A stretch of DNA of 64,000 nt. Origin: Syntrophales bacterium (GTDB lineage Bacteria > Desulfobacterota > Syntrophia > Syntrophales > UBA2210). Location: the NCBI GenBank assembly GCA_963662405.2, contig CAXXKT010000001.1:1888001-1952000 (forward strand), in the 5' to 3' direction. A model generated the notes under the pieces. It did not search any database. It worked only from the letters and a program-made list of their open reading frames with translations, and had not been told where the DNA came from. Below are positions 3,339-64,000 of the stretch, piece by piece. The first letter of the stretch is position 1. Each line of letters begins with the position of its first letter. The translations under genes and the position numbers were made by a program.

Positions 3339-3361
3339 ACGATCTTGCCTCGGGAGAGTTA

Positions 3362-43830: not shown

Positions 43831-44086
43831 GGTTCCCGTTCGTTTGGCGTTTTACGCGGAAAACATCCCTCCGATGACCGATGACATCGAATTCCGGAAA
43901 ACTCGTTTATTATAGATAAGTGTAATACAATACGTTGATATTTGGCAATATCTTTCTTTTATGTCCCTTGAATTTGATGCCGGTATCGTGCTAGTAATGA
44001 TTTTGAATGCGGGTTTTGCCGCTCCGATGGCCCGCCCGGTTCTATCCCGTGCTTTATGCCGATGCTCGCGAGAAGGATAGATACAT

Positions 44087-45139: not shown

Positions 45140-45203
45140 CACGATAAGAAATCACTTTTTACCATCGAGGATCATCCTGTCAGATCGTAGCGAGGATTAC
45201 CAT

Positions 45204-45605
45204 ATGAACATCCAGGAACATATCAATTCGTCACGGCGGAGCGGGGCGATCGATTTCGTCATTGAAGAGAGAGATGAAGAATGCGTTGTCAGCAGCATGC
45301 CGGTCACGGAAGGGGTGCGTAATCCGTTCGGGACGGTGCAGGCGGGTGCCCTGATTTGGCTGGCGGACGTGACGGCATCGATCCTTGCAATAGGGGCGCA
45401 CAAAATCGGTCCTTCCGGGGAGGGTTTCCCCCTCGCGATCAATCTGCATACGACGCTGCTTGATAATCAGCGAGATGGGACCGTTCGCGCAGAGGCGCGA
45501 TTCGTCCGAAAGGGAGAGCGAATCATCGTGATACGGACCTGCCTTACCAGTGACAGGGGGGAGCTGCTGGCTGAGGTAAACTCTACACACATTCGTGCCG
45601 TATAA
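45204..45605 (+). CDS. PaaI-family hotdog thioesterase
   Basis: NPFGTVQAGALIWLAD. Confidence 0.85.
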   Translation: MNIQEHINSSRRSGAIDFVIEERDEECVVSSMPVTEGVRNPFGTVQAGALIWLADVTASILAIGAHKIGPSGEGFPLAINLHTTLLDNQRDGTVRAEARFVRKGERIIVIRTCLTSDRGELLAEVNSTHIRAV

Positions 45606-45647
45606 CGTGGCATGGGACAGATAATCGATAATTGAGAAAGGAAATGG

Positions 45648-46436: not shown

Positions 46437-46459
46437 AGGAACAATACCCGGCGAATGGT

Positions 46460-46759
46460 ATGGCACGGTGGCATGTCTATATGATCAGGTGCGGGCAGGG
46501 GACTCTCTACACGGGAATCACCACCGATGTGGCACGACGTTTTGCCGAGCATCAGTCGTCGGGACCCCGAGCCGCACGGTATCTGAAGGGGAGAGGGCCG
46601 CTCCGGACCGTTTTCTCTGTCGATGTCGTCGACCGTGCGGCCGCGCAGAGGCTGGAGCGCAGAATCAAAGGGCTGACAAAGGCGAAAAAGGAACTCTTGG
46701 TCCGGCATCCCGAATCCTTGCGCGAGATCGTCGATACCGCTCCGACACGAGAGACTTGA
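46460..46759 (+). CDS. GIY-YIG nuclease family (YhbQ-like)
   Basis: VYMIRC, LYTGITTDVARRFAEH. Confidence 0.9.
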   Translation: MARWHVYMIRCGQGTLYTGITTDVARRFAEHQSSGPRAARYLKGRGPLRTVFSVDVVDRAAAQRLERRIKGLTKAKKELLVRHPESLREIVDTAPTRET

Positions 46760-46872
46760 ATGACCCTCTGAAGTCATATTGAGCAAAGGGGTACATCTTC
46801 TCGGGCCCTATGAAAGATGAGATGATCATGTGCTGCCGATGCACCTCGAGAGGGCGGAAATCAAACCGGATC

Positions 46873-47550
46873 TCAAGGCCTCTCTTGATTTTTCGCTGGT
46901 CCGTTTCCTTTTGCCGGGAACACCCGGTCAAAATCGCGAAGCATCCGACCGGTCAATCTATCCCTGACCGATTGAGGGTTGTGGGTGATATCCAGGATAA
47001 TCTCCTCCATGTTCTCCAAGGTGCTGCCGATGCGATTATCGATGCGGCGAGCAAGAATACCCGAAAAGAGTGCCATGACGAACCGGGAAATGCCGTTGTC
47101 TCCTCGCATGAAGAGTTCCACGACCCCCGTGATTCCTTTGCTGCCTGCTTCATACGCGAAGATGACCACACCGCTTGCGGTGAAAAACGAAGGGATCGCC
47201 CAGTGGTTGAAACTCCCTGTTGCACAGAAGGTCCGTGAACGATCGGACCGATCAATCTGCCGGACATCGCCGATAATCCCCTGTGGATCGGAGACGTGGA
47301 TGCCGGCGTTTGTCCTGGTCACGCGGTAGGGAGGCCGGAACCCGTATATGACCCAGAGTTGCCCCATAAGGGAAGGATTATCCATGGCCTTTTCCCATAT
47401 CGGAAGCGTGGTATCAATAGAAAATGTCTTTTGATAAGTCGTTGTCGGGGTTTCAATGATTTCTCCAACAGGGAGCTCGAGCGCCTGGACCGGAGACACC
47501 GCGGGGAAAAGCAAACAGATGATCATAATCAGCAGAGATCTTTTCAACAT
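46873..47550 (-). CDS. Exported hypothetical protein
   Basis: GGAG RBS, signal peptide ending VQA. Confidence 0.6.
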   Translation of the reverse strand: MLKRSLLIMIICLLFPAVSPVQALELPVGEIIETPTTTYQKTFSIDTTLPIWEKAMDNPSLMGQLWVIYGFRPPYRVTRTNAGIHVSDPQGIIGDVRQIDRSDRSRTFCATGSFNHWAIPSFFTASGVVIFAYEAGSKGITGVVELFMRGDNGISRFVMALFSGILARRIDNRIGSTLENMEEIILDITHNPQSVRDRLTGRMLRDFDRVFPAKGNGPAKNQERP

Positions 47551-47736
47551 CAAGGCTCCTCGAGGGATTGGTGCCGGCAGTATAGATGGATTGTCCGTAT
47601 GGATCAATCTCAAACTCGCGAGGTATGCTGACGCATTTCTGCTTGAATCGGGGAGATGGGGCAATGGGCAGCAAGCAGCCGCTGCGCATGTTACCGTATG
47701 CCCGGGAGTGAGCGGGCAATCGCAGCCAATGTCGAT

Positions 47737-47766
47737 AAAAAAGGGGTCACGACATCTCGTAACCCC
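47737..47766 (-). terminator. Terminator downstream of tRNA 3' fragment
   Basis: GGGGTTACGA...TCGTGACCCC followed by T6 on the minus strand. Confidence 0.7.
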
Positions 47767-47774
47767 TTGGAATC

Positions 47775-47819
47775 TGGAGCCGATGAGCGGATTTGAACCG
47801 CTGACCTGCTGATTACGAA
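47775..47819 (-). tRNA. 3' half of tRNA-Thr(CGT); island att site, no adjacent 5' half
   Basis: Minus strand TTCGTAA-TCAGC-AGGTC-AGCGG-TTCAAAT-CCGCT-CATCGGC-T-CCA: anticodon loop, T-arm, acceptor, CCA. Confidence 0.88.
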
Positions 47820-47876
47820 GTATTTGCTCCAGTTATATCTCATTAAAACAACTGATAAATGTGGAGAATCAATTGA

Positions 47877-48416
47877 CTACGTAGGCGTACAGACTTCGAC
47901 AATGGTCATCACAGCCCACCAGTTGATCACGTTTCCCAGTTCGGCGTGGGCGTGGGTGTGGTGGCCATAGATCTCTTTGTCGCCGGCATCGGTGATAACC
48001 GGCTCCTCGCCGCCAAGCATTTGACGAAATGCGTTCTGGATACCGGCGTTGCCTAGGTTGTTGATCGGATCGCCGAGGCCGAAACGCTCCCAGGTGAGCT
48101 GACAGCAGGGGCGGACGATCATCCAGTCGTATTTGTACATCTGATCCTGCAGCTCGCTGCCGGCATAGATCACATACGCATTGCTGACTGAGATGTCCGT
48201 CAGTGACCCGCGGGCTGTCTCGATCGAGACCGGGGAGGTGAAGTCCGAGATGTATGTCTGGGGATCCTCGTACCGCTGCTGCCACATCTCCCGGATTTCG
48301 GGGATGGCGGCGGCAATATCATGAGTATCGGTGTATTGATCAAACAGATACTCCTCGGACCGAGGAGTAATAATCCGTATGTCGTACGTTCGAAATCCAG
48401 CCCGTAACGGGATCAA
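47877..48416 (-). pseudogene. Probable fragment of a larger unknown gene
   Basis: GC-rich coding-like frame without a good start, at the island edge. Confidence 0.35.
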
Positions 48417-48585
48417 GGCATCGACGTGACAGACTGATAATCACGACGTATTGAATAGGTGAAAGCCTTGGGTGGAGCCTCTTGCTGTGGGCAATTGGCG
48501 CCCACTTGTCATGCTCCTCTCATGGCTTTTTCTTTGTGATCATCTATGCGTGTACTGACATTTCAACGATTCATCTTTCTCCCGT

Positions 48586-49129
48586 GTGTGGATTATCGGA
48601 TTGAGAAATCGAGAGACATCTTGTATAGAGATGGCCATAAAGGTCACCGCCATATACCAACCGGACCAGTCGACAAAATGCAAACGTCCCCTCTCTCTCG
48701 CCATCGAGAGGAACCTCGACCTGAGCCAGTATCTCATCAAGCACCCCGCCGCGACCTTTTTCGTGAAGGTGACGGGGAACTCCATGATCGACGCGGGGAT
48801 CCATGACGGGGACATCCTGATCGTCGACCGTTCCCTCAAGCCCGTCGATAAGAAGGTTGTCATAGCCGTCGTGAACGGCGAGCTGACCGTGAGGAGAATC
48901 AGAGTCACCAGAGGAAAGGGGGTCCCCCTTGACGCTTTTTGCTGAAAATCGAGAGAAACACTCCGACAAGATCATGCAGGTCCTCGACAGCATCAACCGC
49001 CGGTTCGGGGCCAACACGGTCCGCTGCGCCGCCACGAACTCCACTACAAACCAAAAATGGCAAACGGTGGCCGAGTGGCGTTCTCCTTCCTATACCACCA
49101 ACGGGGACCAGCTACCCCGCGTGTCGTAA
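48586..49129 (+). pseudogene. umuD: Deleted umuDC remnant (UmuD N-part joined to UmuC C-terminal tail)
   Basis: LIKHPAATFFVKVTGNSMIDAGIHDGDILIVDRS, then in another frame MQVLDSINRRFG...WRSPSYTT. Confidence 0.85.
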
Positions 49130-49160
49130 CAACATTACCATAAAAGGAGGTATCTTTCCC

Positions 49161-49508
49161 ATGGCCCTGAAAAAAGAAGGTCTAGTCAAATTAATCGAAG
49201 AGGAACTTGGCTTTCCCAAGAACAGATCGAAAGAGCTGGTAGAATCCGTCTTGGAGATCATGAAGCAATCACTGGAGGAGGGTGAAGAAGTGAAGATCAA
49301 TGGCTTCGGGAAGTTCTTCCTCATCGATAAGAAAGCCAGGAACGGGAGGAACCCACAAACGGGAGAGGATGTAATCATTGAACCCCGGAGGGTTGTTTCT
49401 TTCAAATTCTCCCCACAGGCGCGGGCCAAGCTCAACAGCGAATTGACATCACGCACCACTCAGAGCGGATCTGGCGCCTTCATGAAGCGAGCAACGAGAA
49501 GTCTTTAA
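49161..49508 (+). CDS. IHF-alpha/HU-like DNA-binding protein
   Basis: AGGAGG RBS; VKINGFGKF, RNGRNPQTGE. Confidence 0.92.
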   Translation: MALKKEGLVKLIEEELGFPKNRSKELVESVLEIMKQSLEEGEEVKINGFGKFFLIDKKARNGRNPQTGEDVIIEPRRVVSFKFSPQARAKLNSELTSRTTQSGSGAFMKRATRSL

Positions 49509-49521
49509 AGGAGGGATTACA

Positions 49522-50358
49522 ATGAGTGCTCGGAAACCACTTTTTAGCATCTTTACGTGTCTCTTTATTGTTGCTCTCATATTGGTTTCCCCACCTGGCG
49601 TTCAAGCTGTCGACTATTCGGAGATTCATTGCAAGCATTTCATCCACGGCTACCCAGCCGGCGTCCCACTGAGCAATGACCTCATTATTCGTGATATTTA
49701 CGCACTGTCGTCAAATGATGCGACCAAACTAGCGGATTGGGTCTGCTATCGCCTCGATAAAGAGACCGTCACCGGAGACGTGGAAACCTCAAGGAAATGG
49801 CAGGCTGATCCGTGGCTGGACGAGATCGAAACATTGGAGCCTTCTGATTATGCGGGCGCACATGCTGCCCTGCATGTAGACCGGGGGCATCAGGCTCCTT
49901 TGGGAAGCTTCAAGGGGACAAAGCAATGGGCTGATACGAACATGCTTTCAAATATAACCCCTCAAAAGGCAAACCTCAACCAGGGGCCCTGGAAGAAGCT
50001 TGAAGAAAAAGTGCGTGACCTTGCGAGGGCCGGTGATGTCGTTTATGTGATGACGGGGCCGCTATATGAGCGAGATATGCCAAAGCTGCCCGGGGCAGAT
50101 GAACCTCATTTGATTCCGTCAGGGTATTGGAAGATCATCGTCATACAACCAGACAAGGACATCAATTCCATCCGGACGGCAAGCTTCATCTTTGACCAAG
50201 AGACACCAAGAAATGATGCAGTAATCGATCATCTTTGCGCGATCAATGATATTGAGACAAAAACAGGGCTTGATTTTCTAAGAACCCTTCCCGACGAGAA
50301 GGAAGAAGAGATTGAAGGGGCAATGAATAACAGGTGGGTTGAAGCACAGTTTCAATGA
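49522..50358 (+). CDS. Secreted DNA/RNA non-specific endonuclease
   Basis: Signal peptide; DRGHQAP, SNITPQ...LNQGPW...LE. Confidence 0.92.
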   Translation: MSARKPLFSIFTCLFIVALILVSPPGVQAVDYSEIHCKHFIHGYPAGVPLSNDLIIRDIYALSSNDATKLADWVCYRLDKETVTGDVETSRKWQADPWLDEIETLEPSDYAGAHAALHVDRGHQAPLGSFKGTKQWADTNMLSNITPQKANLNQGPWKKLEEKVRDLARAGDVVYVMTGPLYERDMPKLPGADEPHLIPSGYWKIIVIQPDKDINSIRTASFIFDQETPRNDAVIDHLCAINDIETKTGLDFLRTLPDEKEEEIEGAMNNRWVEAQFQ

Positions 50359-50502
50359 TCTTTTCACGCTCAGCCGGACAAACAGAAGCCCCGGATGAGA
50401 GAGGTTTTTTCACCCGGGGCTTCCGCAGCAAAAGTATCGCCAATCCCTGCAGTGTTTGTGGTTAAATTGTACCACCCTACCGTCATAAATCAAGGATTTT
50501 TT

Positions 50503-50739
50503 ATGCCCGATAAAACAGCCCATATGCTTCAGAAAACCTTGGGGATCCTGAGCAAGCTCCAAAGCTATAGAGGTGAAGACTTTACAACGGGAATGCAAGA
50601 GTACCTCCAACTTGTGGACCAGTTCTACCGGGAGAACGAACATCTTGTGGCTCGCCAGCAATATGAAGTTGCACAGACAGATCCCGAGTACTTTTTGCGG
50701 CTCCTGGTTCTAGCCGAAGAGATCCACAAGGAGGAGTGA
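50503..50739 (+). CDS. Small hypothetical protein
   Basis: AAGGA RBS, helical composition. Confidence 0.5.
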   Translation: MPDKTAHMLQKTLGILSKLQSYRGEDFTTGMQEYLQLVDQFYRENEHLVARQQYEVAQTDPEYFLRLLVLAEEIHKEE

Positions 50740-50778
50740 TAGGATCAACCTTATCATCTACAATTGATCAGTAAGTTA

Positions 50779-50966
50779 AGGAGAATTTCGATGATTGTCT
50801 TTTGAAAGTCTCTCGGTAAAATTTCTTGACAATACATCATCGTAGAGTTACCTAAATAGCTGTTTTGATTTTGACGTTTTTTCTGCTTGCGAACGTCTGT
50901 AAGCAAGGAGGGATTATGGCCTGATCATCGAAGCCCTGTTTCTGAAAAAGAGAGGTGGGGCTTTTT
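50779..50966 (+). promoter_or_regulatory. Promoter + SD/mini-ORF + terminator leader, copy B
   Basis: TTGACA at 50826; AAGGAGGGATT-ATG GCC TGA; AAGCCC...GGGCTTTTT; upstream similar to 54042 and 59407. Confidence 0.6.
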
Positions 50967-51149
50967 GCTCCTTTCTAGCCACTCAACAACCATCAGGATA
51001 AGCTTTTTGAGGAAATATGGAGATGAAGCATCGCATAGCACGCCTACTGTGTTCATTGATTCTGTCCAATATCTCCCTAAATGTTTATGCAAGTGAACAA
51101 GGCAATCGAGTAACAAAAACTTTCTGGTCGATATGAAATAGGGATCAAG

Positions 51150-53747
51150 GTGTCGGTTATGAAGAAATGTGGCCCTCCTATCGTACGACTTCTCTGTTTC
51201 AGTTTTGCGATTTTTCTGCTCTTCCTAACAGCTTTCATTCTTCAGTCCGTGATTGCCCTCCGGGCTGAAGCCTCCCCAAACGCAAGTAAACCTCCCATCC
51301 TCTCCGCCTCTGAGCTTGATTACCCTCCCTTCTGCATCGTTGACGCTGAAGGCGAGCCAGACGGCTTTTCGGTGGAACTGCTGCGTGCAGCCCTGAAGGC
51401 CATGGGACGCGAGGTCACGTTCCGTACCGGGTCCCATGCCAAGGTGAGGGGCTGGCTGGAGGAAGGCAATGTTCGGGTTCTCCCCTTGGTGGCTCACACG
51501 CCGGAGCGTGAACACCTCTTTGACTTTACCTTCCCCTACATGTCTCTCCACGGCGCCATCGTGGTCAGGAAAGATGAAGAAACGATCCGAAATCTGGAGG
51601 ATCTGAGAGGGCGGCGAGTGGCCGTCATGAAAGGACATAGTGCCGAGGAGTTCCTGTGCCGTGGAGACCGGGGGATCGAGATTCTTACGGCTAACACTTT
51701 CCAAGATGCCCTCCATATCCTAACCGAAGGGCGCTGTGACGCCATCGTCATGCAGCGGCTTGTAGCGCTCCGTCTCATCCAGGAACACAGTTTAACAAAC
51801 CTCCGTGTTATCGAAAAACCCATCGAAAAATTCCGGCAGGATTTCTGCTTCGTCGTCAAGGATGGTGATCATGACGCACTGGCTCTCCTGAATGAAGGAC
51901 TCGCACTCGTCATGGCGGACGGAACTTACCGCCACCTGCATGCCAAGTGGTTCGCTGACCTCCAGCTTCCGTCCGACCGGTCCATTATTATCGGCGGAGA
52001 CTACAATTACCCTCCCTTTGAATACTTGGATGACAAAGGCCGCCCAAGGGGATTCACCGTCGAACTGACACGTGCCATCGCCCGCGCAATGGATATGGAT
52101 ATCCGGATTCACCTTGGCCCCTGGTCGGATATCGTCAGGAGCTTGGAGCAAGGCGATATTGACGTCATTCAAGGTATGTTCTACTCCCCGGATCGCGATC
52201 TTAAATTCGATTTCACCCAATCCTACTTAGCAAATCAGTACGTTGGCATTGTGCGCAAGGGCGAAGGTGATCCCCCTAACGGGACTGCTGACCTAATCGG
52301 TAAGCGCATCGTGGTGGAACGTAGTGACGTCATATACAACTTCCTGCTCGAACAAGGCTTGTCAAATCAGGTTACACTGGTTGAGACGCAGGAAGATGTT
52401 CTACGGGAACTGGCGGAGGGAAAACATGACTGCGCACTTGCCGTCAGGATCAGCTCCTTGTACCTGATTAAGAAGCACGGTTGGACTAACCTAGTTCTAG
52501 GTCGAAGTCCATTTGTTACGATGGAATACTGCTATGCTGTGCCGAACAATCGAAAGGCACTCCTGGCCCAGTTCAGCGAGGGGTTGAAGACTGTTGAACA
52601 AAGCGGTGAATACCACAGAATCCATGAAAAATGGATGGGGATTTACACGGAAAGACCGATAATCGAATTTCTGCGTTATACTGCAATGGTGGCCATTCCC
52701 CTCCTTCTCATTCTCTTGGCGATTTTTCTGTGGTCGTGGTCTCTGCGTAGAAAAGTGAGAATGAGAACAAAAGAACTGAGGGAGAGCGAGGAACGGTACC
52801 GTGCGTTTTTCGAAAACAGTATGGATGCCATTATGCTGACTGCACCTGATGGAAGAATCCTCGCCGCGAATCCGTCCGCCTGCGAGATGTTTGGCCGTAC
52901 TGAAGATGAAATCCTCGAACTGGGGAGGAAAGGGATAGTTGCTGCAACCGACCCGCAACTTACCACATTCTTGGCCCAGCGAAAAGCACAGGGGCGGGCG
53001 AGGGGAGAATTGACGCTGGTTCGAAAGGGTGGCTCACATTTTCCCGCCGAAGTAACCTCTGCCTTCTTCCGGGACAGCTCTGGAGCGACAAAGACCAGCA
53101 TGATTGTCCGAGACATGACCGACCGCAAAAAAGCAGAAGATGACCTTTTGAAAACTCTCGAACGACTCAGAAAGGCATTTGCCGCCACCATTCAGGTCCT
53201 GGTCTCAGCAGTTGAGATCAGAGATCCTTACACCGCCGGTCACCAGGTGCGGGTGGCACACCTTGCCCGTGCCATCGCCGAGGAGATGGGATTTGACGAG
53301 GAACGAATGGAAAACATACGCGTTGCCGGTCTCATTCATGACATTGGGAAGCTGTCAATCCCGGCGGAGATCCTTTCCAAGCCGACACAATTAACGCCAA
53401 TCGAATTCAGTCTTGTCAAAGAACATCCACGGAGCGGCTACGAGATACTGAAGAGCGTTGAGACCGAATGGCCACTGGCTGAAATCGTCTGCCAGCACCA
53501 TGAGCGGATGGATGGTTCAGGCTATCCACGACACCTGAAGGGAGATGAAATCCTCCTCGAGGCTCGAATCCTTGCTGTTGCCGATGTAGTCGAGGCCATG
53601 GTCTCCCATCGCCCCTGGCGCCCGGCCTTGGATATTGCGACTGCTTTGAATGACATAGAAAATAACAAGGGGATCCTTTACGATAATACCATTGTCGATA
53701 CCTGCTTGCGCTTGTTCCGGGAGAAAGGATACAAGTTACCGGAGTAA
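51150..53747 (+). CDS. HD-GYP phosphodiesterase with two periplasmic SBP-3 domains, TM and PAS
   Basis: DYPPF and NYPPFEY SBP motifs; RDPYTAGHQ, HDIGK, HHERMDGSGYP. Confidence 0.92.
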   Translation: MSVMKKCGPPIVRLLCFSFAIFLLFLTAFILQSVIALRAEASPNASKPPILSASELDYPPFCIVDAEGEPDGFSVELLRAALKAMGREVTFRTGSHAKVRGWLEEGNVRVLPLVAHTPEREHLFDFTFPYMSLHGAIVVRKDEETIRNLEDLRGRRVAVMKGHSAEEFLCRGDRGIEILTANTFQDALHILTEGRCDAIVMQRLVALRLIQEHSLTNLRVIEKPIEKFRQDFCFVVKDGDHDALALLNEGLALVMADGTYRHLHAKWFADLQLPSDRSIIIGGDYNYPPFEYLDDKGRPRGFTVELTRAIARAMDMDIRIHLGPWSDIVRSLEQGDIDVIQGMFYSPDRDLKFDFTQSYLANQYVGIVRKGEGDPPNGTADLIGKRIVVERSDVIYNFLLEQGLSNQVTLVETQEDVLRELAEGKHDCALAVRISSLYLIKKHGWTNLVLGRSPFVTMEYCYAVPNNRKALLAQFSEGLKTVEQSGEYHRIHEKWMGIYTERPIIEFLRYTAMVAIPLLLILLAIFLWSWSLRRKVRMRTKELRESEERYRAFFENSMDAIMLTAPDGRILAANPSACEMFGRTEDEILELGRKGIVAATDPQLTTFLAQRKAQGRARGELTLVRKGGSHFPAEVTSAFFRDSSGATKTSMIVRDMTDRKKAEDDLLKTLERLRKAFAATIQVLVSAVEIRDPYTAGHQVRVAHLARAIAEEMGFDEERMENIRVAGLIHDIGKLSIPAEILSKPTQLTPIEFSLVKEHPRSGYEILKSVETEWPLAEIVCQHHERMDGSGYPRHLKGDEILLEARILAVADVVEAMVSHRPWRPALDIATALNDIENNKGILYDNTIVDTCLRLFREKGYKLPE

Positions 53748-53807
53748 AAACCCAGCCAAGGTCCACAGCAGACATCCGATATAAGATTATTATATTTTAT
53801 TTGTAGG

Positions 53808-54094
53808 AGGAAGAATCGCGCAGCGAAAAGTATTTCTCGGATACTCCTGCTGCGATCCTCCCACTGTTCACTTATCCTCACAATCGAGTGCGCCGAGAGA
53901 TTACCGATTATTTATTGAAGTCGACATTCTGGGGGAAAGTCTCTGTGTAGCAGATTTCTTTCGGTAATGCGCAGGAATGATCAAAGAAAAAAGGAAACGT
54001 GCTGTTTATTGGTGTCACCTACAACTCCTCAAAATCTTTTCAGGAGAAAATCGATGATTACCGTTTGAAAGTCTCCCCTAATATCTCTTGACAA
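53808..54094 (+). repeat. ~290-bp non-coding direct repeat, copy 1
   Basis: Aligns with 59170-59460; 53901-54022 identical to 59266-59387; ends at TTGACA. Confidence 0.92.
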
Positions 54095-54167
54095 GGTGCC
54101 ATAATGGGGTTACTAGTCAAGCCATTCTATTGATTAGCTTTTTGTTAAGAATCACACAGGTACTCTT

Positions 54168-55115
54168 TTGTTACCGTTGGTGAGTATAGTGAAAAAAACG
54201 GTCATTCTTTTCGGTGCTGGTGCAAGTTACGGTGCAGGAGACATTCTTCCAGAGAAACCACCCCTAGGGTCGGATTTGTTCGATCGGCTGACAGCCTGTG
54301 CACCAAGAACTTGGGGTGCCCTACCATCTCCTTACCGTGATGAGTTCGTCACGAAAGGGTTTGAAGAAGGAATGGAACTTGTCTATGAGCAGCTATCGCA
54401 TCTGATTGCGCCACTGATGAGGGATATGGCTGTATATCTAATACAATACCGTCCTTTTTCATTTGAGTCAGCTTACGACCACCTACTCGAGCAATTATCG
54501 TCTCTTAGTCTTATTAACTCGGTTCTGTTCTCCACTCTCAACTACGATTGCATTCTGGAGTTTTGCCTTATTCATCGTGGTCATAAACCGTCCTATTGGG
54601 ATGAGGGTACAAACCATAACACGATTCCAGTATGGAAACTGCACGGATCGTCAAATTGGTTCACTTCTTCTGTGAAGGCGGGGTCGGGAGTATCATTTGG
54701 CAGAGGGGTTACATTTTCTGGCGGACTAGAGGCCTTCTTGGATATCGGAACAGTTGTTGAACACTGTTTGGTCAATCAAGGATTATATCCTGCAATGAGT
54801 CTTTATATGAAAGACAAACCTGTGCAGATTGCTCCCGAGCAAATCTTGCGCCTTCAATCAATGTGGAAAGACGCGGTTCTGAACGCACAGAACGTCATAT
54901 GTATCGGCGTAAACCCATTACCGGCGGACAGACATATATGGGAACCAATATCTGAAACCGATGCTCGTTTGTTTTTTGTTGGCGACAAGAACGCTTACGA
55001 CAAATGGATATCTAAGTATCGGTCAAAACCATCCATATATATTGATTGTTTTTTCGATTCAAGTGTCAAAAAACTGGTGAAGGGAGTGGCAGATGAACTT
55101 AACGGAAGCGGATAA
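54168..55115 (+). CDS. SIR2-like domain protein (start possibly GTG 54189)
   Basis: VILFGAGAS, STLNYD, KLHGS. Confidence 0.8.
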   Translation: MLPLVSIVKKTVILFGAGASYGAGDILPEKPPLGSDLFDRLTACAPRTWGALPSPYRDEFVTKGFEEGMELVYEQLSHLIAPLMRDMAVYLIQYRPFSFESAYDHLLEQLSSLSLINSVLFSTLNYDCILEFCLIHRGHKPSYWDEGTNHNTIPVWKLHGSSNWFTSSVKAGSGVSFGRGVTFSGGLEAFLDIGTVVEHCLVNQGLYPAMSLYMKDKPVQIAPEQILRLQSMWKDAVLNAQNVICIGVNPLPADRHIWEPISETDARLFFVGDKNAYDKWISKYRSKPSIYIDCFFDSSVKKLVKGVADELNGSG

Positions 55116-55386
55116 AAAGAAGATCCTAGAATGGCTCGAAGATAAATGCGGGGCCATGAGGTGTCTAGCCTGCGGGCAGAATCAGTGGGAGTTGTTACCT
55201 TTCTCAACTTTGCAGATTGGCTTTGACCTCCACACGACACGTTTTCACTATCACAACGGCATACCATTCATAGGTATCACATGTGTTCATTGCGGTTATG
55301 TAATGCAATTCAGTTCTGGGGTTATTGGCTTTAAGCCTGAACCACCCCAAAAACCAGAGATAAAAGAATCTGAAAAGGGTTCGTAA
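55093..55386 (+). CDS. Small Zn-ribbon protein
   Basis: CLAC...CVHCG; overlaps SIR2 stop; GGAG RBS. Confidence 0.7.
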   Translation: MNLTEADKKKILEWLEDKCGAMRCLACGQNQWELLPFSTLQIGFDLHTTRFHYHNGIPFIGITCVHCGYVMQFSSGVIGFKPEPPQKPEIKESEKGS

Positions 55387-55485
55387 ATCATTAACACTTA
55401 AAGCATTTTTTCGGGGTCTTGTATTGCAATTTTGCAGAGTTTCTTTTTTATAAAAAAAGTACGTATACATTAGTTACGGGGCAAT

Positions 55486-56367
55486 ATGGAAATACCAATA
55501 TTATTACAATTAATCTTTGCTGCTTTGTTAGGAACAGCGGGGTCTGTGATAGCTCAAAAATATATTGAAACCCATGCACCCCTAATAATTACTTTATGTA
55601 TAATTGGGATGGTTATCATAGGGGGTCATGGTATTTATCGTATTTACTCGAAAGATATTTTTAAAGTAACTTCCATTATCCAAGTGAGGCTCAAATGGCC
55701 TGGGCCTTTGGTGTTCTGTTACCCATCTGCATCAGGGAAGAATCTTTCTCCCATTAGCGTAGCCCTCTTCGTAGAAGTAGTTAATAACAAGGATGTTATC
55801 TCACGTATCTCCAGCTATGAGTGTAGAGCGTTGTTGGAATATGACGAAGGGGGAAATACTGTTGTTAACCATGCACCAAATGGAGGGATAAAACTTGAAT
55901 ACAAACCGGCAGGGAAAACTGTGACGAAGTGGAGGAATTTATATGGTATGGGATTTGTGGACAACCAAGTATATTATATAACTGATCATGACTGGAGAAA
56001 ATGCAAGCGCGTTGATTTTAGAAACAATGGTTTTGATAGGCTAGCCAAGGACACTCAATTAAATCCCGGCGAATCTTTAAAAGGGTGGATGTTTTTTGAA
56101 TTGGAACATGATTTAAGGGGTCAATTGCCTGAAATTAAAAAAGTGGAATTGACATTTACTAATTCAGTCGGAGAGTCACAGTCATTGAAAATTAAAATCA
56201 AACAAAACGTAAAGGATGACAACGACATGGTTAATTATATAAGTTCAGGTGAATGGATTCTTCTTGAAGGGTACCATGACCTTACAAAAGAAAAATATAC
56301 AATGACACCGATGGTTGACTTGCGTAGAATTTTAAAAACAGGAAAATCTATAATCGTAAACCCTTGA
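55486..56367 (+). CDS. AT-rich hypothetical protein with two N-terminal TM segments
   Basis: 293-aa ORF, hydrophobic N-terminus, beta-rich remainder. Confidence 0.7.
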   Translation: MEIPILLQLIFAALLGTAGSVIAQKYIETHAPLIITLCIIGMVIIGGHGIYRIYSKDIFKVTSIIQVRLKWPGPLVFCYPSASGKNLSPISVALFVEVVNNKDVISRISSYECRALLEYDEGGNTVVNHAPNGGIKLEYKPAGKTVTKWRNLYGMGFVDNQVYYITDHDWRKCKRVDFRNNGFDRLAKDTQLNPGESLKGWMFFELEHDLRGQLPEIKKVELTFTNSVGESQSLKIKIKQNVKDDNDMVNYISSGEWILLEGYHDLTKEKYTMTPMVDLRRILKTGKSIIVNP

Positions 56368-56440
56368 GCAGACATTAAAGCGGGATGTATAACAAATTCC
56401 CCTTACTATGGCATCAATCCGATAGGGGGGTACTGAATAT

Positions 56441-56505
56441 TGCTGATTACGAAATGAAATATACAACAACTCGATGCCGATTGGTTCCCTTGCTTTCAGG
56501 AAGGA
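56441..56505 (+). repeat. tRNA anticodon core copy + conserved arm
   Basis: TGCTGATTACGAA identical to 47807-47819; following ~50 bp similar to 63950-64000 (GAAAT...CTCGAT...ATTG...CTTTCAGGAAGGA). Confidence 0.8.
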
Positions 56506-56755
56506 GCAGATAATCTACATGAACCTAGAATGTGCAGCCCGAGTTGTGCATCTTTCAACCCGCATTCGATAAGGTTGGCTGACGAATTGTGGTGCTGACT
56601 TGTATTTGTAGTCAATAAATGTGGGAAATGGATTCGCGGCTTGGCTTTCAATCCGTACTGTTCAGGCAGGATAAAGGAAAATGCCAGAGTGTCGGTTATT
56701 GACGCCACCTACAAGTCCATACCTTTCGCTTTGGAATTGAAGTGAGAATTACCAC

Positions 56756-59056
56756 TTATAATCCAGTCTTTTCGAATGTAAACCCTTTTTCCCTGAACAG
56801 TTTTATGCAGGCATCCACCACATCTGCATCGTAAAGAATCCCCCGGTTGTCCTCGATCTCTTTCAGGCCCGCGTCGATACCCAGGGCGGCACGATAGGGA
56901 CGGTGGGAGGCCATGGCTTCGACTACGTCACAAACGGCCAGAATCCGGGCTTCCATGAGAATCTCATCACCTTTGAGATTTCTTGGATAGCCCGAGCCGT
57001 CCATCCGCTCATGGTGCTGGTAGACAATCTCCGCCAGCGGCCATGAGGATTCCACACCCTTCAGGATGTCGTAGCCTTTCTGGGCATGTTCCTTGATCAG
57101 GGAAAACTCGGTCTCCGTCAGCTTTCCTGGTTTGGACAATATCTCTGCGGGAACGGATAGTTTTCCGAGATCATGAATGGAACCGACTATATAGATACCT
57201 TCAATCATGTTTTGGGGAAGCTTCATCTCTGTGGCGATAGCACGGGCAAGGATCGCAACGCGGAGCTGGTGATTGGCAGTATAGGGGTCTCTGGCTTCAA
57301 CCGTGGATACTACGACCTGAATAGTAGCGTTGACGGCATGCCTGAGAAGCTCGAGGGTATTGACGAGGTCCTTCTCCGCCTGTTTGCGAACAGAGATGTC
57401 AAAAATGATGGAATGAAGGAGATCCTTGTTATTGACTTTGATTTTGCTGCTGAACACACCCACATCTCGAACTGAGCCGTCGGCCCGCCTGTGGCGAAAC
57501 TCGAAATGCACTTGTTTATTGCTTCTGGCCTCCTCCATCTCCTTTTTGATCTCTTCAGGCGAAAGGGTGTTGATCTCTTGAATCTTCATCTGCGTGAGTT
57601 GTGCACGCGACCATCCATAAAATTTCACCGCTGCCCTGTTGACATCAAGGATATCCCCAGTATCCGGATCTAAGATCATCTTAACTGCTGCATGGTCTTC
57701 AAATACTTTTCTGAAAAGCAATTCGCTTTCCCTTAAAGCCTCCTCCGCCCGCTTGCGCTCGGTGATATCCACGATACTGGTAATGAGGTAAAGGGGGATT
57801 CCTTGCGCATTACGCTGTAGCGTGGCGCTGACATCTGCCCAGACGGTATCGCCGTTTTTGTGGAGGTATCGCTTTTCAAATCGACAATCGGTCTGCTCAC
57901 CGGCTACGAGGGAACGGATATATTCCTGGCTTTCCGCTACGTCGTCCGGATGGGTGATGTGCTCGAAATTGAATTGTTGGAGTTTCTCGATACTATAACC
58001 CAGCATGTCGGCAAAGGCCCTGTTCACCTGCAGGAGACTTCCATCCGGCTTCGTCAGAGACTTGCCGATAGTGGTGCGTTCGAAAATGACACGAAACCGT
58101 TCTTCGCTTTCCTGAAATTCAATCTCTGCCTGCTTGCGGTCGGTAATATCGCGAAAAATACCCAGGAGAAAATCTTTATCGGATAATCGGACTTTTGCCG
58201 CCCGGATTTCAACCGGAACCACTGTGCCTCTTTTCGAAAGGAGTTGCTCTTCTAGCGTAATACCGGGATCTCCCTCCATGTGTTGTTTAAAGGTTCGAGA
58301 AATTTTTCCAATGATTGTTTCGGGAGGATGGAGAATTGCCTGATCCTTTCCGATAAGTTCTTGCTTGGTCCGCTCTACCATTCGGCATAAGCTCTGGTTG
58401 CAGTCTACCAGTCTGCAGGTTTCAATGTCAGCCAACGCCATACCGTCTTGAGCGTTATCAAACAGGGTTCGGTAACGCATTTCGGACTCATGCAGTACAT
58501 CCTCCTCATGTTTCCGTTCGGTAATATCACGAAGATTCATTACGAACCCTGCCACTAGCGGATCATCCAAAAGATTACTGCCGACACCTTCCAGGATGCG
58601 CACGGTGCCGTTTTGGTGCTTCACATGGAAACTGTTAGGGATGAGGTTCTCTTTGACGAACAATGCCCTGCCGAAATCCGTAACGGCCCTTGGCTTATCG
58701 TCAGGCACAATCAGATCTAAAACCCGCGTTCCGATCAACTCGCCCGGCTCATAGCCGAGAAAATGCTCAACGGAGGGGCTCACATATGAGATGAATCCCC
58801 GCTTATCCAAGACAACGATGATACCGGATGAGTTCCGGATGATCGCCTGGTAATACTCCGCATTTTCCCGTACCGTTGTTGAGACCTTCTTGCGTTCTGG
58901 CTTAGATTGCTTCGGTTTCTTGATTTTCCGTTTCGAGGCGGATATTTTTTTGATCGGTTCTTGATTTATTCTGGTTGAATTTCGCACATTACCCCTCGCG
59001 TTGTAGCAAAAGGGATGATCCGAAAACAAAAATAGGCAAGCTGATATGAAAAACAT
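56756..59056 (-). CDS. Multi-PAS HD-GYP phosphodiesterase (start uncertain)
   Basis: Four PAS/PAC repeats ending DITxRK-like; RDPYTANHQ, HDLGK, HHERMDGSGYP. Confidence 0.9.
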   Translation of the reverse strand: MFFISACLFLFSDHPFCYNARGNVRNSTRINQEPIKKISASKRKIKKPKQSKPERKKVSTTVRENAEYYQAIIRNSSGIIVVLDKRGFISYVSPSVEHFLGYEPGELIGTRVLDLIVPDDKPRAVTDFGRALFVKENLIPNSFHVKHQNGTVRILEGVGSNLLDDPLVAGFVMNLRDITERKHEEDVLHESEMRYRTLFDNAQDGMALADIETCRLVDCNQSLCRMVERTKQELIGKDQAILHPPETIIGKISRTFKQHMEGDPGITLEEQLLSKRGTVVPVEIRAAKVRLSDKDFLLGIFRDITDRKQAEIEFQESEERFRVIFERTTIGKSLTKPDGSLLQVNRAFADMLGYSIEKLQQFNFEHITHPDDVAESQEYIRSLVAGEQTDCRFEKRYLHKNGDTVWADVSATLQRNAQGIPLYLITSIVDITERKRAEEALRESELLFRKVFEDHAAVKMILDPDTGDILDVNRAAVKFYGWSRAQLTQMKIQEINTLSPEEIKKEMEEARSNKQVHFEFRHRRADGSVRDVGVFSSKIKVNNKDLLHSIIFDISVRKQAEKDLVNTLELLRHAVNATIQVVVSTVEARDPYTANHQLRVAILARAIATEMKLPQNMIEGIYIVGSIHDLGKLSVPAEILSKPGKLTETEFSLIKEHAQKGYDILKGVESSWPLAEIVYQHHERMDGSGYPRNLKGDEILMEARILAVCDVVEAMASHRPYRAALGIDAGLKEIEDNRGILYDADVVDACIKLFREKGFTFEKTGL

Positions 59057-59169
59057 TTGTGAAATCTACATGATAACTGTTGAAATGTCAACATGGGATA
59101 TCGTCCATCAAACGCTGCTTACCGTTTAAAAGAATGTATTTTCATCAACGCTGACGTCTTACTGATTGC

Positions 59170-59460
59170 AGGAAGAATCGCGCAGCAAAAGTACTTCTCG
59201 AACACTCCTACGGCGATTCTCCCACTCTTCACCTACTTATCCTCACCATCGAGTGCGCCGAGAGGTTACCGATTATTTATTGAAGTCGACATTCTGGGGG
59301 AAAGTCTCTGTGTAGCAGATTTCTTTCGGTAATGCGCAGGAATGATCAAAGAAAAAAGGAAACGTGCTGTTTATTGGTGTCACCTACTACTGCTCAGAAT
59401 AATTTCAGGAGAAAATCGAGCATTATCATTTGAAAGTCTTAACACAAAATTCCTTGACAA
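59170..59460 (+). repeat. ~290-bp non-coding direct repeat, copy 2
   Basis: Aligns with 53808-54094. Confidence 0.92.
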
Positions 59461-59603
59461 TACATTGTCTTAGAGTTAACCAAGTTAGCAGATTTGATCT
59501 TTATGTTTTTATCTGCTTGTGAACGCTTGTACCCAAGAGGGGGGATTATGGTTCGGACATCAAAGCTCTGTTTCTCAAAATGAGGAATAGGGCTTTTCTT
59601 TTT
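59454..59603 (+). promoter_or_regulatory. Promoter + SD/ATG + terminator leader, copy C
   Basis: TTGACA at 59454; GAGGGGGGATT-ATG; 16-bp stem AAAGCTCTGTTTCTCA/TGAGGAATAGGGCTTT then T-rich. Confidence 0.6.
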
Positions 59604-59669
59604 GTGAACTGTACGATCCAATTGGGGGTACTATACTGCATAATCTTAGATGTTTACGATATGATACGA

Positions 59670-59692
59670 GATACATATAAATATTGTTAGCG
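59670..59692 (+). other. attI-like first recombination site of cassette array
   Basis: GTTAGCG core complementary to CGCTAAC at 61449; no attC hairpin upstream. Confidence 0.55.
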
Positions 59693-59732
59693 AGTTGTCG
59701 TGTCAGAGCAAACCGCATTGAGGTCTTAAAAA

Positions 59733-61409
59733 ATGGTGACAAGCCCGGAACCGGGAGGGGAAAAAACACGTCTCAGGATTGATCAAGCCAATGTGTTTTA
59801 TAACTACGCGATAGGATTCGAAGCTAATTCTGTTGACCTCGTTGGAACGGCAAGAAAGCTCCTGAAAAAAGGGATTGCGAAAGCTGTATTTTTCTCTGAC
59901 CGCAAAGTCCTATACACCGACGCGGACGGGAAAGTACAGATAGAGTTGATACAACCACAAGGTCGGCAATGGGACCACCGCTGGAAGGTCGAATTTGACT
60001 CAAAAATCCCCGCCGATGTCGATGCCGAACTTATCCTTGCATTCGAAGTGTCATTTGTTGAACACCGTATGGATGGCCCTAACGCTGGAAATATTCCGCC
60101 CTATCTCAGGGCCAGCCTTCCGCCGATTGTGTTGGAATCGGATGAGTTGCAGTTGCCTATTTTCGCGTCAATCAAACTGTTCGCTGACGGAATCGCCATC
60201 TTGAGTTTTCAGCTTGATGCTACTTGGGATGGTGTTGACGAGGAATACTTTGTATCGAACATTGTAAATATTTATCAGTGCTACTTCAACTCCATATGGG
60301 TCGATTCTCAAATTCAACGGCTTGATGCAGAAACGATACTGCCGGTAGCGTTCCAAGACGAGATATCCCTCGCTGGAAATCCGATTGGGGGCCGCAAAGT
60401 AAATAAATTATTGCGGAAGATGCGAATGGAAAGCCAAGCCTTAATAAACAAAGACCTCGGCGAGCAAGGGCGGCAGTTTGAAGTTGGCAATGAGCAATGG
60501 GTTCTACACCCGATTATTGGGACCAAGAACCAAGACTCGTGGGAATCAACACTAGATTTATGTCGACTTGAGTATTCTAATGCTTTGAGTGCGCTACTCG
60601 TGCATGGTCGAAAACAGCGGAAGATCCAGGCACAGTCCGCGTACTCGTGGCAAGGTCGACCTTCTGTTGCTCTTATGCGTTTCCGCAGGCAACCCACGAC
60701 TAAGGATGATCTCCTAAGCGGTTTCGCACCCTCATTGTCACGAATACTCATGCGGTCAGCAACCTTGGAAACGCCGCCAGATCTTCCTCCAGATCTACGA
60801 CTTTTTGGAGATTACTGCTTCCATGGAAATCGTTCTTTGCTCCTCTGGACATGGCTGCTTCCGCATGGGGCGCTAGTCAACGCTTGGGAGGAGTCGGAAT
60901 CGCGTTCCGCTCTTATGGAACACCAAGCGCGTTCCGAGCACATTGAATACCACAACATGCGGATCGTCCGCGCATGCGAAATGGCCCAATCTCCACTATC
61001 TGATAACCACCTGAGAGAAGCCTATGAAACCCTAGCCTCGCTCCACGATGTGATTCACCATAGCAGCCAGGCGGGGGAGATTACAAATGCGCTGACGTAT
61101 CTCTTAGAAGAGAGCGGTACGACGAAGCTGGTGGCTCCTGCGAAGGAAGCAGCACGCTGGCACCTTGACGAGTTGCGATACAGGTCTGATAAACGCCGAA
61201 CCCGCGTGGATTATTGGCTCTCCTTCGTTTTTGGGCTAGTCGGAACCACAGGGTTGGCAGATTTTGCCATTCGGCCCTTTCTGGTCAACGCTTGGCCTGG
61301 TCTCAGTCGTGAAGCGACCCCGCTTGTCGCGTTAGGAATCGCTGGCTTAATCGTCTCTTTGATAGCTCTCTCCATATGGTTCCTTAACAGGGGAGAATCG
61401 GACGACTAG
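59733..61409 (+). CDS. Cassette protein with two C-terminal TM helices (CorA-like topology)
   Basis: 558-aa ORF; large soluble region, helical stretch, then 2 hydrophobic segments. Confidence 0.75.
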   Translation: MVTSPEPGGEKTRLRIDQANVFYNYAIGFEANSVDLVGTARKLLKKGIAKAVFFSDRKVLYTDADGKVQIELIQPQGRQWDHRWKVEFDSKIPADVDAELILAFEVSFVEHRMDGPNAGNIPPYLRASLPPIVLESDELQLPIFASIKLFADGIAILSFQLDATWDGVDEEYFVSNIVNIYQCYFNSIWVDSQIQRLDAETILPVAFQDEISLAGNPIGGRKVNKLLRKMRMESQALINKDLGEQGRQFEVGNEQWVLHPIIGTKNQDSWESTLDLCRLEYSNALSALLVHGRKQRKIQAQSAYSWQGRPSVALMRFRRQPTTKDDLLSGFAPSLSRILMRSATLETPPDLPPDLRLFGDYCFHGNRSLLLWTWLLPHGALVNAWEESESRSALMEHQARSEHIEYHNMRIVRACEMAQSPLSDNHLREAYETLASLHDVIHHSSQAGEITNALTYLLEESGTTKLVAPAKEAARWHLDELRYRSDKRRTRVDYWLSFVFGLVGTTGLADFAIRPFLVNAWPGLSREATPLVALGIAGLIVSLIALSIWFLNRGESDD

Positions 61410-61448
61410 CCTGTGGCTGATCAGGAGCTCTGATTAAAGGCTACGATT

Positions 61449-61519
61449 CGCTAACATGTCACTTGAGGGGGATGTGAAAAACGCTGGCGCCTTTCCCCGG
61501 CCTCAGTTCATCGTTACCG
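61449..61519 (+). other. Integron attC site
   Basis: CGCTAAC-5nt-ACT(T)GAG...CTCAGT-5nt-GTTACCG. Confidence 0.85.
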
Positions 61520-61533
61520 CCGTTGAGTCACAC

Positions 61534-62463
61534 ATGAACATCGATTTGATTGAAAATTATTTTCTACAGAAATACCCTGGCGATGGCCGACGTAAGGCGA
61601 TACGTGAAGAGCTTACAATTTGTTGCATTGATTTTGTAAAGTCTGGATTGGCTGATTCGAATTTCATCAATGAACTGTGTTCCGGTTCGGAAAACAAATT
61701 TTGGTCCCGTCTGTCGGAGGCATTATTATCAGCACGCCTAAAAAACGTAGGACTAATTCCCGAACCATCGCAAGGTGGTGGCCCTGATTTTTATGTAATT
61801 GATAATGGTCTAAAGGTCTGGATCGAAGTTATTTGTCCTGAACCAACAGGTTTACCAACCGAATGGACAGAACCAGAAACGGGTAAAGCGATAAGCTTTC
61901 CGTATGAGCAAATTCTTCTGCGTTAGACAAGCGCCATAAAGGAGAAGGCAGAAAAGTTACTTGGTAGCATGGATGGAGAAGGTAGAGGCTATATTGAAAA
62001 AGGAATTGTCTCTATTGACGACGCATATGTAATCGCTGTTAATGGCCGCAAGCTTCGTAGTGGCAATCCTTTCCCTGAACTTTATGGTATAAGCCAGTTT
62101 CCCTTTGCAGTTGAAGCGGTTTTTGCTGTCGGCCCATATCAGATAAAAATAGATCGCGATACGCTTAAACAAACAGGTGATGGACATCAGCACAGACCGT
62201 TAATAGCAAAACCTAAAGGAATGCCTGTCCCTGCTTACACTTTTCTTGATGAGAGATTTCAGCCAATCAGTGCCATTTGGGCTGTGGATATAGATGGCAC
62301 GTCTGCGATTGGAAACTCAGAGCCAATGGTTGTGGTTCATAATCCAAATGCAGTTAATTCAATATCAACTGGCTTTTTGCCGGCCCATGATGAGTATGTG
62401 GCTACTCCTATCAAAACGGATGAATATGAACTGAAAAGACTTGATGGTAACTTACTTGACTGA
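61534..62463 (+). pseudogene. Cassette gene with PD-(D/E)xK-like motif, interrupted by in-frame TAG at 61924
   Basis: ORFs 61456-61926 and 61969-62463 are in the same frame; GPDF...WIEV motif. Confidence 0.75.
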
Positions 62464-62504
62464 CGCACAAAAAGCGTGCGCGCCCCACAGCAGAAACGTT
62501 AAGA
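62445..62504 (+). other. Degenerate attC site
   Basis: TGGTAAC (6/7 complement of GTTACCG at 61513), CGCAC/GTGCG hairpin, GTTAAGA. Confidence 0.6.
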
Positions 62505-62583
62505 TGCTTGTCTGTTCGGCTGCAGCGGACACATCGCTTGAGCCATCGGGCAGCCTGAGACGGTGTGCTAAAGGAATAAAGGC

Positions 62584-63786
62584 ATGAAAAAATATCACGT
62601 CGCATTGTCGTTCGCTGGTGAAGATCGCAATTATGTTGATAACGTCGCAAGAAGATTGCAGGACTGCGGTGTCAAGGTCTTTTATGACAAGTTCGAGGAA
62701 ACCAATTTGTGGGGGAAGGACCTCTACACATACCTGTCAGATGTGTATCAGAATCAGGCGTTTTTCACGGTCATGTTTATCTCTGAGGACTACAAACGGA
62801 AGTTGTGGACAAATCACGAGCGGACAAATGCCCAGGCCCGAGCCTTCTCAGAGAACCGCGAGTACATCCTGCCGGCATTCTTCGATACGAGCGTTGAAGT
62901 TCCGGGAGTACTGAAAACGACTGGATACGTGGACCTCTCAACGCTACCCCCTGAGGAATTCGCAGACAAGATTATCGACAAACTTGAGAAATCAAACGTC
63001 CTACTACTCACGGAGGTGCATTACTCATATTCCGATGTCGCTCGTGCAGACGTAGATTTTCCGATCCGGGACGGAGACGAAGTCTCAGAGATTATCACTG
63101 CCCTTCGATCAAATAACTGGTACACACAGAACCCAGCGATAGAGAAAATCTTCAAGCTTGATTGGAAGAAGCGGACCTCGGATGAGGCATTTGTCCTTGG
63201 ACGGAATATCTATCAATGCGCGGACGGAGGCGAGCGCCGGGCCGAGGCAATCATGAATGACCTACGGCGCGAGTTTGCGAAGTTCCCTGACGAATGGGCC
63301 ACACATATCCTGAATGGCATGTTCTACGAGGCATACTTCAACCACGAGGGGAATTTCAGGGGATCGAAGCTAAAAAGCAAGTTTCTCTCGCACTTATTCG
63401 CTATCGAGACTGTGGCAAAATTCGAAAAGACCATCACGTACATCCAGTACGTGCTCGATCCGTACCGAGGCAGCCTTGGCGTCCTACCGAATAAGTCTCC
63501 CGAGGTGCTGCGGATTAGAGTCAAAATCGAGGAAAAGGACCCACCGGTGGTCACGAGCATAAAGGCTCAAGGGAAGGAGCAACTGGTAACCAGCTCTGAA
63601 GATTTAGACGATCCCGGCTGGCGGTTCTCCTACCGTGGATTTACGTTGGATGGATTCCCCGAGCAGCTCATGAAGTTTTGGAATATCCCAGAGGACCACT
63701 TTGAGATTGATTACGACAAGGATCTTCCAGGCATAACCAAAGTCCACTTGCCCAAGGGGACGACGTTGGGACAACTGAAAGTGTGA
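62584..63786 (+). CDS. TIR-domain protein with C-terminal domain of unknown function
   Basis: YHVALSFAGEDR, VFYD, WGKDL, FISEDY, WTNHER. Confidence 0.9.
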   Translation: MKKYHVALSFAGEDRNYVDNVARRLQDCGVKVFYDKFEETNLWGKDLYTYLSDVYQNQAFFTVMFISEDYKRKLWTNHERTNAQARAFSENREYILPAFFDTSVEVPGVLKTTGYVDLSTLPPEEFADKIIDKLEKSNVLLLTEVHYSYSDVARADVDFPIRDGDEVSEIITALRSNNWYTQNPAIEKIFKLDWKKRTSDEAFVLGRNIYQCADGGERRAEAIMNDLRREFAKFPDEWATHILNGMFYEAYFNHEGNFRGSKLKSKFLSHLFAIETVAKFEKTITYIQYVLDPYRGSLGVLPNKSPEVLRIRVKIEEKDPPVVTSIKAQGKEQLVTSSEDLDDPGWRFSYRGFTLDGFPEQLMKFWNIPEDHFEIDYDKDLPGITKVHLPKGTTLGQLKV

Positions 63787-63815
63787 AGCGCTTTTCGGGA
63801 TTATCAGGGGGTGCG

Positions 63816-63941
63816 GCCGAACCTGTAGCTGCAGCAGACAGCCAGGGCCGTGGCATTTCAGACAATACGGAGTAGCTTGAAATTAAACGCATTATCCAAG
63901 TTCAGTGGAGGCCCTGGCTGCTGCTGAGCATGGCGTTACTG
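63816..63941 (+). other. Integron attC site
   Basis: GCCGAAC-5nt-GCT(G)CAGCAG(A)CAGCCAGGGCC...GGCCCTGGCTGCTGCTGAGC-5nt-GTTACTG. Confidence 0.9.
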
Positions 63942-64000
63942 ATTACGAAAAGAAATGAGATTATCTCGATCCCAATTGATTCTAACACTTTCAGGAAGGA
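63939..64000 (+). repeat. tRNA anticodon core copy + conserved arm (runs off window)
   Basis: CTGATTACGAA plus arm similar to 56454-56505. Confidence 0.8.

Follow-up and report, generated by a model that had tools for sequence, protein, structure and literature searches.

Does the last attC site of a cassette array lying inside a tRNA island abut the att core of that island, or is the sequence that it abuts of another kind? The question is raised near the right-hand end of the window (the whole stretch of 64,000 nucleotides analysed, C1:1888001-1952000 of a Syntrophales bacterium), where the R′ box GTTACTG (63935-63941) overlaps the 11-mer CTGATTACGAA (63939-63949). This overlap, the second internal copy of CTGATTACGAA at 56443 and the position of TTACTGATT at 59159, all reported in the initial annotation, were borne out when the letters were rechecked. 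The label of a tRNA-derived att core, given there to the internal copies (56443 and 63939), is an interpretation and was not confirmed. The 11-mer has exactly three exact occurrences in the window (47809, 56443 and 63939), and with up to one mismatch four matches were found against 1.32 expected, a number reached in 5 of 100 shuffles.

The junction lies in a module (59381-63998) that is composed of a left end (LE), a leader, the left half of an attI site, three cassettes and a right end (RE), as follows.

59381-59439, + strand: LE, left end of the module, with CACCTAC and a TGATTAC-type motif about 35 bp inside.
59454-59600, + strand: leader repeat, with a sigma70-like promoter, about 105 nt and a terminator-like hairpin, read by eye from the alignment.
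59651-59688, + strand: left half of an orphan attI site, crossover G59686/T59687.
59687-61513, + strand: cassette 1, with a 558-aa ORF, attC at 61449-61519 and 7/7 end complementarity.
61514-62498, + strand: cassette 2, whose ORF is interrupted by an in-frame stop (61456-61926 and 61969-62463).
62499-62514, + strand: 16-bp piece from the attC2 crossover to cassette 3, delimited from the sequence.
62515-63935, + strand: cassette 3, with a TIR-domain ORF of 400 aa (62584-63786).
63816-63941, + strand: attC of cassette 3, 126 bp, crossover G63935/T63936, assigned from geometry, fold, complementarity and an independent contig.
63936-63998, + strand: RE, right end of the module, 63 bp, opening at the integron crossover and ending in CAGGAAG (63992-63998).

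The attC of cassette 3 is genuine and its junction with the downstream DNA is real. Its R″-L″-L′-R′ geometry is canonical with a bottom-strand hairpin (-24.5 kcal/mol, z -2.89), and R″ (63816-63822) is the exact complement (7/7) of the 7-mer at 62514, at the start of cassette 3. A contig from another study (run X5; a single contig, depth 2.4) matched the TIR cassette over 62514-63938 with 39 differences and carried different DNA on both sides; because the homology stops there, the crossover was placed at G63935/T63936 and the downstream DNA was assigned to the target half outside the cassette. At C1:2679997, inside a tRNA-His island, another attC is followed by the identical 21 letters. The junction is probably a normal integron crossover, for which the opening bases of the repeated RE, and not a tRNA att core, served as right-hand partner.

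The ORF of cassette 1 had no match in Pfam or PADLOC. Cassette 2 carries a degenerate attC (about 62445-62504) with a weak fold (z -0.02), and its R″, read by eye, is complementary to the cassette start at 6 of 7 positions. The 16-bp piece that follows is either native DNA preceding RE, as after a secondary-site insertion, or what is left of a deleted cassette; it fits insertion of cassette 3 directly at RE and not at attI, though it may be a deletion remnant. The ORF of cassette 3 matched Pfam TIR_2 (E 6e-18) and had weak PADLOC matches, the strongest being PDC-S66 (E 1e-13, about 100 aa aligned). This ORF and a SIR2-like one at 54168-55115 are candidate anti-phage genes. Copies of the leader lie at 59454-59600 and 50820-50975, with many further ones in this genome, and combine a strong sigma70-like promoter, a terminator-like hairpin and a Shine-Dalgarno-like word whose frame is mostly two codons long. 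Rfam gave no match for the leader, nor anywhere in 44000-64000, and the leader is possibly an undescribed small RNA or attenuator. Its reading as a type I toxin peptide gene was dropped, the frame stopping at codon 3 in most aligned copies. The module layout recurs across this genome and, with different cassettes, in other genomes: locus L022 of another genome of the same genus holds a complete one-cassette module (end complementarity by eye), and related RE/attI/cassette layouts were found in loci L037, L059, L063, L101 and L144. No intI match was obtained in any external locus with such layouts, these loci being 1-6 kb long.

Copies of RE, which runs over 63 bp from TT via the TGATTAC-type motif to CAGGAAG, were collected with a profile built from 11 seeds, which gave 25 matches in this genome; 21 were kept, namely those with E no higher than 2e-3 and one that an insertion element interrupts, whereas four weak ones were dropped. 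These 21 copies sit in islands at tRNA-Arg, -Thr, -Met, -His and -Lys, and a sequence model search found RE in 13/101 genomes of the order, this genome included. attC sites were called by two geometric tests, after covariance alignments had misregistered without consensus pairs; the tests are too noisy for genome-wide use (395 matches) and miss attC-like ends visible by eye. An attC stands directly before 10/21 copies in this genome (two of the ten at near-identical loci), before 8/33 distinct copies collected by scanning metagenomes and family genomes with a pattern, and before 2/18 profile-selected copies from relatives, the last figure not demonstrably above a null of 7% (42 of 600 random GTT sites, a match in either of two strict tests being counted). 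The check proposed at the outset, how often an attC R′ abuts the core in homologous arms, was therefore answered by recurrence in the pattern set as well as in this genome, but not demonstrably in the profile-selected relatives. When the attC 3′ end was scored by position weights, 8/21, 10/34 and 3/19 were positive at a 5% threshold. Several RE flanks in relatives resemble decayed or truncated attC ends by eye. The base preceding the TT of RE is G in 14/21 copies in this genome, 23/33 in the pattern set and 9/19 in relatives. The TGATTAC-type motif recurs in register at the end of RE itself (18/10000 permutations) and in LE, which accounts for the word at 59159: described at first as a degenerate core, it is rather the CAGGAAG-type right end of the neighbouring module 56706-59175. 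The other internal copy of the 11-mer belongs to the following feature.

56440-56503, + strand: second RE copy, closing module 54016-56503, with a 13-nt tRNA match and no intact attC before it.

This copy had been considered as a collapsed empty attI, which was dropped; the preceding hairpin resembles a decayed attC and fails both attC tests.

The integron integrase of the genome lies elsewhere. Only one intI is intact (C1:2211990-2212934; 471 bits, cut-off 265) and lies about 260 kb from the array, a second one (C1:30608-31553) is broken, and none was found adjacent to module 59381-63998. With two attC sites or more and no intI nearby, the array falls within the definition of a CALIN. The orphan attI (59651-59688) differs little from the site that adjoins the intact intI (C1:2214391), and it is predicted to recombine with attC under the cognate IntI. 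Ten such orphan attI sites, not beside intI, were recognised with a profile that had been built from copies it then found; RE follows within 9 kb on the same strand in 8/10 (one RE being degenerate and one truncated and added by hand), and LE with the leader precedes 6/10. No RE match was obtained beside the two intI-linked arrays. At both intI genes attI and the array lie downstream of the 3′ end of the gene (C1:30430-30600 and 2212937-2214391), and about 170 bp of the 3′ flank of the broken intI are copied into an island module at C1:2673400-2673571.

Integron recombination always leaves the last attC next to the original target's right half, which here is RE. The distant intact IntI may work in trans on the orphan arrays and would have recombined repeatedly at the G/TT that opens RE, whether by cassette insertion there, by trimming of the array back to it or by filling of an empty attI/RE site; each of these routes would leave the last attC flush with RE. 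Repeated recombination by IntI at RE, by insertion or trimming as at GWT secondary sites (bioRxiv 10.1101/2022.09.11.507474), is the simplest view, since several attI variants end at one and the same RE base and no empty attI/RE site was found: a scan of genome contigs gave three matches in unrelated taxa and a scan of 37 related genomes with two mismatches allowed gave six, none with the RE body. No joint left by excision of a cassette or module was seen in the contigs of the sequencing runs, in which rare forms are dropped.

The module ends themselves may serve a second enzyme. Only one module, the neighbour of the array, was found at two places between differing flanks and with exactly the same ends.

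56706-59175, + strand: neighbour module, carrying a PAS/HD-GYP gene and, within its right end, the word at 59159.

Its second copy, on contig C2, is similar from CACCTAC to CAGGAAG, with ends matching at 96% and 90% and with different flanks. Beside the C2 copy lies a gene for a tyrosine recombinase of Xer size (C2:404727-405668; L124:8727-9665), an open frame of 313 codons (about 280 aa from the first Met) in which the catalytic R, HxxR, H and Y are present. It falls below all NCBIfam cut-offs, those of XerC/XerD included (70-72 bits against 330-335). Homologs, which occur across the class, were found in 51/339 genomes, and the flanks were compared at 30 loci (L191-L220), the best 30 of 67 matches. 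Before the recombinase start CACCTAC occurs at 16/30 loci, in 15 of these 101-127 bp away (chance 0.4%); after the stop a CAGGAAG-type word occurs at 17/30, in 16 of these 113-119 bp away (chance 4.6%). Such 7-mers at fixed distances suggest att-like ends. Kinship of the recombinase flanks with RE and LE rests on the 7-mers, their spacing and a motif read by eye, because the RE and LE profiles of this genome score few of these ends. LE and RE may be arms of an att-like site for this recombinase family, with crossover at the CA-containing 7-mers and the TGATTAC-type motif as a repeated protein-binding motif of which the tRNA-like 11-mer would be one sequence variant; recombination between LE and RE would then move whole modules. 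It may thus be the recombinase that moves LE-RE modules. Its gene sits between RE and LE, that is between modules, other elements occupy the same 7-mers, and neither a circle nor an empty site was seen, so that either side may be the one that moves.

Taken together, the explanation that we favour with some confidence combines an integron crossover at RE, IntI acting in trans, and LE and RE as arms for the Xer-sized recombinase. A bolder form of it is put forward tentatively and would need some luck to be right: a mobile system of two tiers, present in this bacterial class, in which an undescribed Xer-sized tyrosine recombinase excises small LE-RE cargo modules and integrates them in chains inside genomic islands, one subfamily of modules being integrase-free mini-integrons with a right end that is a preferred target of IntI, so that one chromosomal IntI stocks about ten portable arrays.

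The alternative that survives best, while being distinctly less probable, is that LE and RE are halves of a hot spot into which other elements insert and not mobile ends, the arrays being static CALINs. The integron part would be unchanged, the arrays would have spread by island duplication and homologous recombination, and the inserts would be the segment with the Xer-sized recombinase, spacers of 55-210 bp, two-recombinase transposons and IS110-like elements. The position of the recombinase gene between RE and LE, outside the supposed modules, agrees with it, as do the spacers, whose identity reaches 95-99% across many differently flanked loci. The two-recombinase transposons, which have short terminal inverted repeats (C1:131300-133420 and 159790-161950), speak in the same direction, being inserted between repeated CAGGAAG or CACCTAC 7-mers. 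One insertion-element end, presumably of an IS110-like element, repeatedly interrupts the CACCTAC of LE (C1:158552, 306351 and 1415784; C2:343280; L201 and L206). The modules of the window are moreover part of a tandem duplication, which also suits a hot spot; its copies (53808-59175 and from 59166 onward) share a skeleton of spacers and module ends and hold different cargo, a SIR2-like gene set in one and the cassette array in the other, together with two different HD-GYP-related cargos. An uninterrupted RE/LE site, however, should be common if it were a chromosomal target, and the joined site was found in 0/45 genomes, in no viral contig and in no local locus apart from one spurious match. 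The occurrence of module 56706-59175 twice, with different flanks at both ends, argues against a hot spot as well.

Rather improbable is that RE descends from, or still acts as, the att site of the tRNA-Thr island, by which the arrays would be hooked to island recombination. The island itself is of a recognisable kind: the tRNA-Thr(CGT) gene lies beyond the window (window-equivalent 86542-86617) with the island integrase beside it (window-equivalent 84572-85663), and a repeat of an 83-bp block that takes in the tRNA 3′ half occupies 47737-47819 and stops at the anticodon loop.

47770-47819, + strand: true attR of the tRNA-Thr(CGT) island, where the displaced 3′ half of the tRNA stops at the anticodon loop.

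The ends of the island are 47819 and 86586, and the cassette/RE junction is internal, 16 kb and 22.6 kb from them. A tRNA origin would explain the agreement in register over 11-13 nt in three RE copies, which ends at the crossover of the island, and the 11-mer in both RE copies of this tRNA-Thr island against 1/19 elsewhere in the genome, these two copies belonging to one tandem duplication. The 13-nt match at 56440 reached p ~0.02 against all tRNAs (45/2000) and falls on the real crossover of the island, so that an old relationship between RE and the tRNA keeps a slight probability. A match of at least 11 nt to some tRNA, taken family-wide, is common by chance (794/2000 permutations).

Against such an origin, 15 genuine tRNA-Thr attR sites (14 besides that of this island) were found in 13/339 genomes, and all retain the tRNA 3′ half; the RE body lies beyond 0/15 of them, the RE profile matching essentially the shared word only. 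A displaced tRNA half of about 50 nt, as in the true attR and at the 14 control sites, is absent beside the crossover at 63939 (11 nt) and 56443 (13 nt). Neither tRNA-then-RE junctions in viral contigs nor RE-then-tRNA junctions in 30 genomes were detected, and no tRNA-Thr was found near RE-bearing loci, bar one non-homologous pattern match. The 7-bp overlap is not invariant at 63939 and 56443: over 32 RE copies the tRNA base was present in 12% and 41% at positions 3 and 4 and, for the two bases before the end of the overlap (positions 12 and 13), in 41% and 62%. Positions 15-21 of RE are conserved and unlike the tRNA, and the best-conserved columns fall outside the tRNA match. Homology at RE breaks 7 nt upstream, at G/TT, and about 50 nt downstream, not at the overlap. 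The 11-mer itself was found in 3/21 copies of this genome, in 1/18 from relatives and in 18/33 of the pattern set, the last because the search pattern itself favoured it, and 8/10 of the attC-fused copies in this genome do without it. Neither 63939 nor 56443 is an island end with an integrase of its own, and RE copies also occur in islands at other tRNAs. The tRNA-like word at the junction is most likely a look-alike, a minority variant of the motif repeated at both module ends. Of the proposed link between integron and tRNA-island recombination, the use of an element end as crossover target stands; the identification of that end with a tRNA-Thr att core does not, the true att sites looking different and no tRNA/RE recombinant having been found in either direction.

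Within the same island, the 13-kb backbone (window-equivalent 69612-82495) shares 92-95% identity with segments at C1:2651682, 251032 and 2359896, and the islands sharing it are one family at several tRNAs. In locus L002 two copies of the tRNA-Thr island integrase's 3′ end (2542-2713 and 3349-3530) enclose a two-gene insert that, by eye, reads like a toxin-antitoxin pair.

That the overlap is a one-off accident of this locus, a view favoured by the weak attC enrichment in profile-selected relatives (2/18), is hardly credible beside the identical junction with a different attC at C1:2679997 and the 10/21 copies in this genome.

Cross-talk between integron and tRNA island as first claimed is therefore probably not real, and the interest of the locus lies elsewhere. 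The origin of CALINs with no intI remnant nearby is put as an open question in the relevant passages of PMC4889954. The arrays described here have precise repeated ends, an attI matching that of a distant intI and a candidate mobilising enzyme, which makes the origin and spread of integrase-less arrays directly testable. One such array carries a TIR gene, possibly for defence.

The pdif modules of Acinetobacter plasmids are chains of cargo modules separated by Xer-type recombination sites. The chains described here resemble them in being cargo modules separated by recombination sites, and differ in that the sites appear not to resemble the dif consensus and the candidate enzyme lies below the XerC/XerD cut-offs. 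A literature search, in a collection without most subscription papers, found nothing on the LE/RE module system, and a search for orphan or solitary attI sites gave irrelevant word matches only. The Islander passages (PMC4383910) cover tRNA-targeted genomic islands, including those with the anticodon-centred site A, and the host island fits this type with its tRNA-Thr, displaced 3′ fragment and integrase; the RE junction, unlike the islands of these passages, is internal, has at most 11 nt of tRNA and no integrase of its own. According to the part of bioRxiv 10.1101/2022.09.11.507474 on attG sites, IntI recombines attC with genomic GWT sites (attG), and excision via nearby sites deletes DNA. 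RE is like these sites in opening with G/TT in 14/21 copies; it is unlike them, as there described, in being one repeated sequence that is reused, and it is without the CRGM motif of the IntI1 hotspots, a motif that is that of IntI1 and may not apply to the present IntI. CALINs are attC clusters that have no integron integrase (Cury et al. 2016, PMC4889954), one origin given in its CALIN passages being secondary-site insertion by a distant integron. The present arrays share with them at least two attC sites, no intI nearby and an intI elsewhere on the replicon, but in contrast to what those passages describe they keep the attI left half and constant repeated flanks. With the class 1 integrons flanked by MITEs or IMUs, as presented in the portion of PMC3575428 concerned, they share non-autonomous flanks and an enzyme acting, here by proposal, in trans. 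The MITE or IMU flanks of that source are the same element present twice, and a transposase moves them, whereas LE and RE are dissimilar, share a direct-repeat motif and are linked to a tyrosine recombinase. On this analysis the array, which lacks the displaced tRNA half, the invariant overlap and the island-end position of a tRNA-island att site, is of the CALIN type and would work like an integron flanked by MITEs or IMUs.
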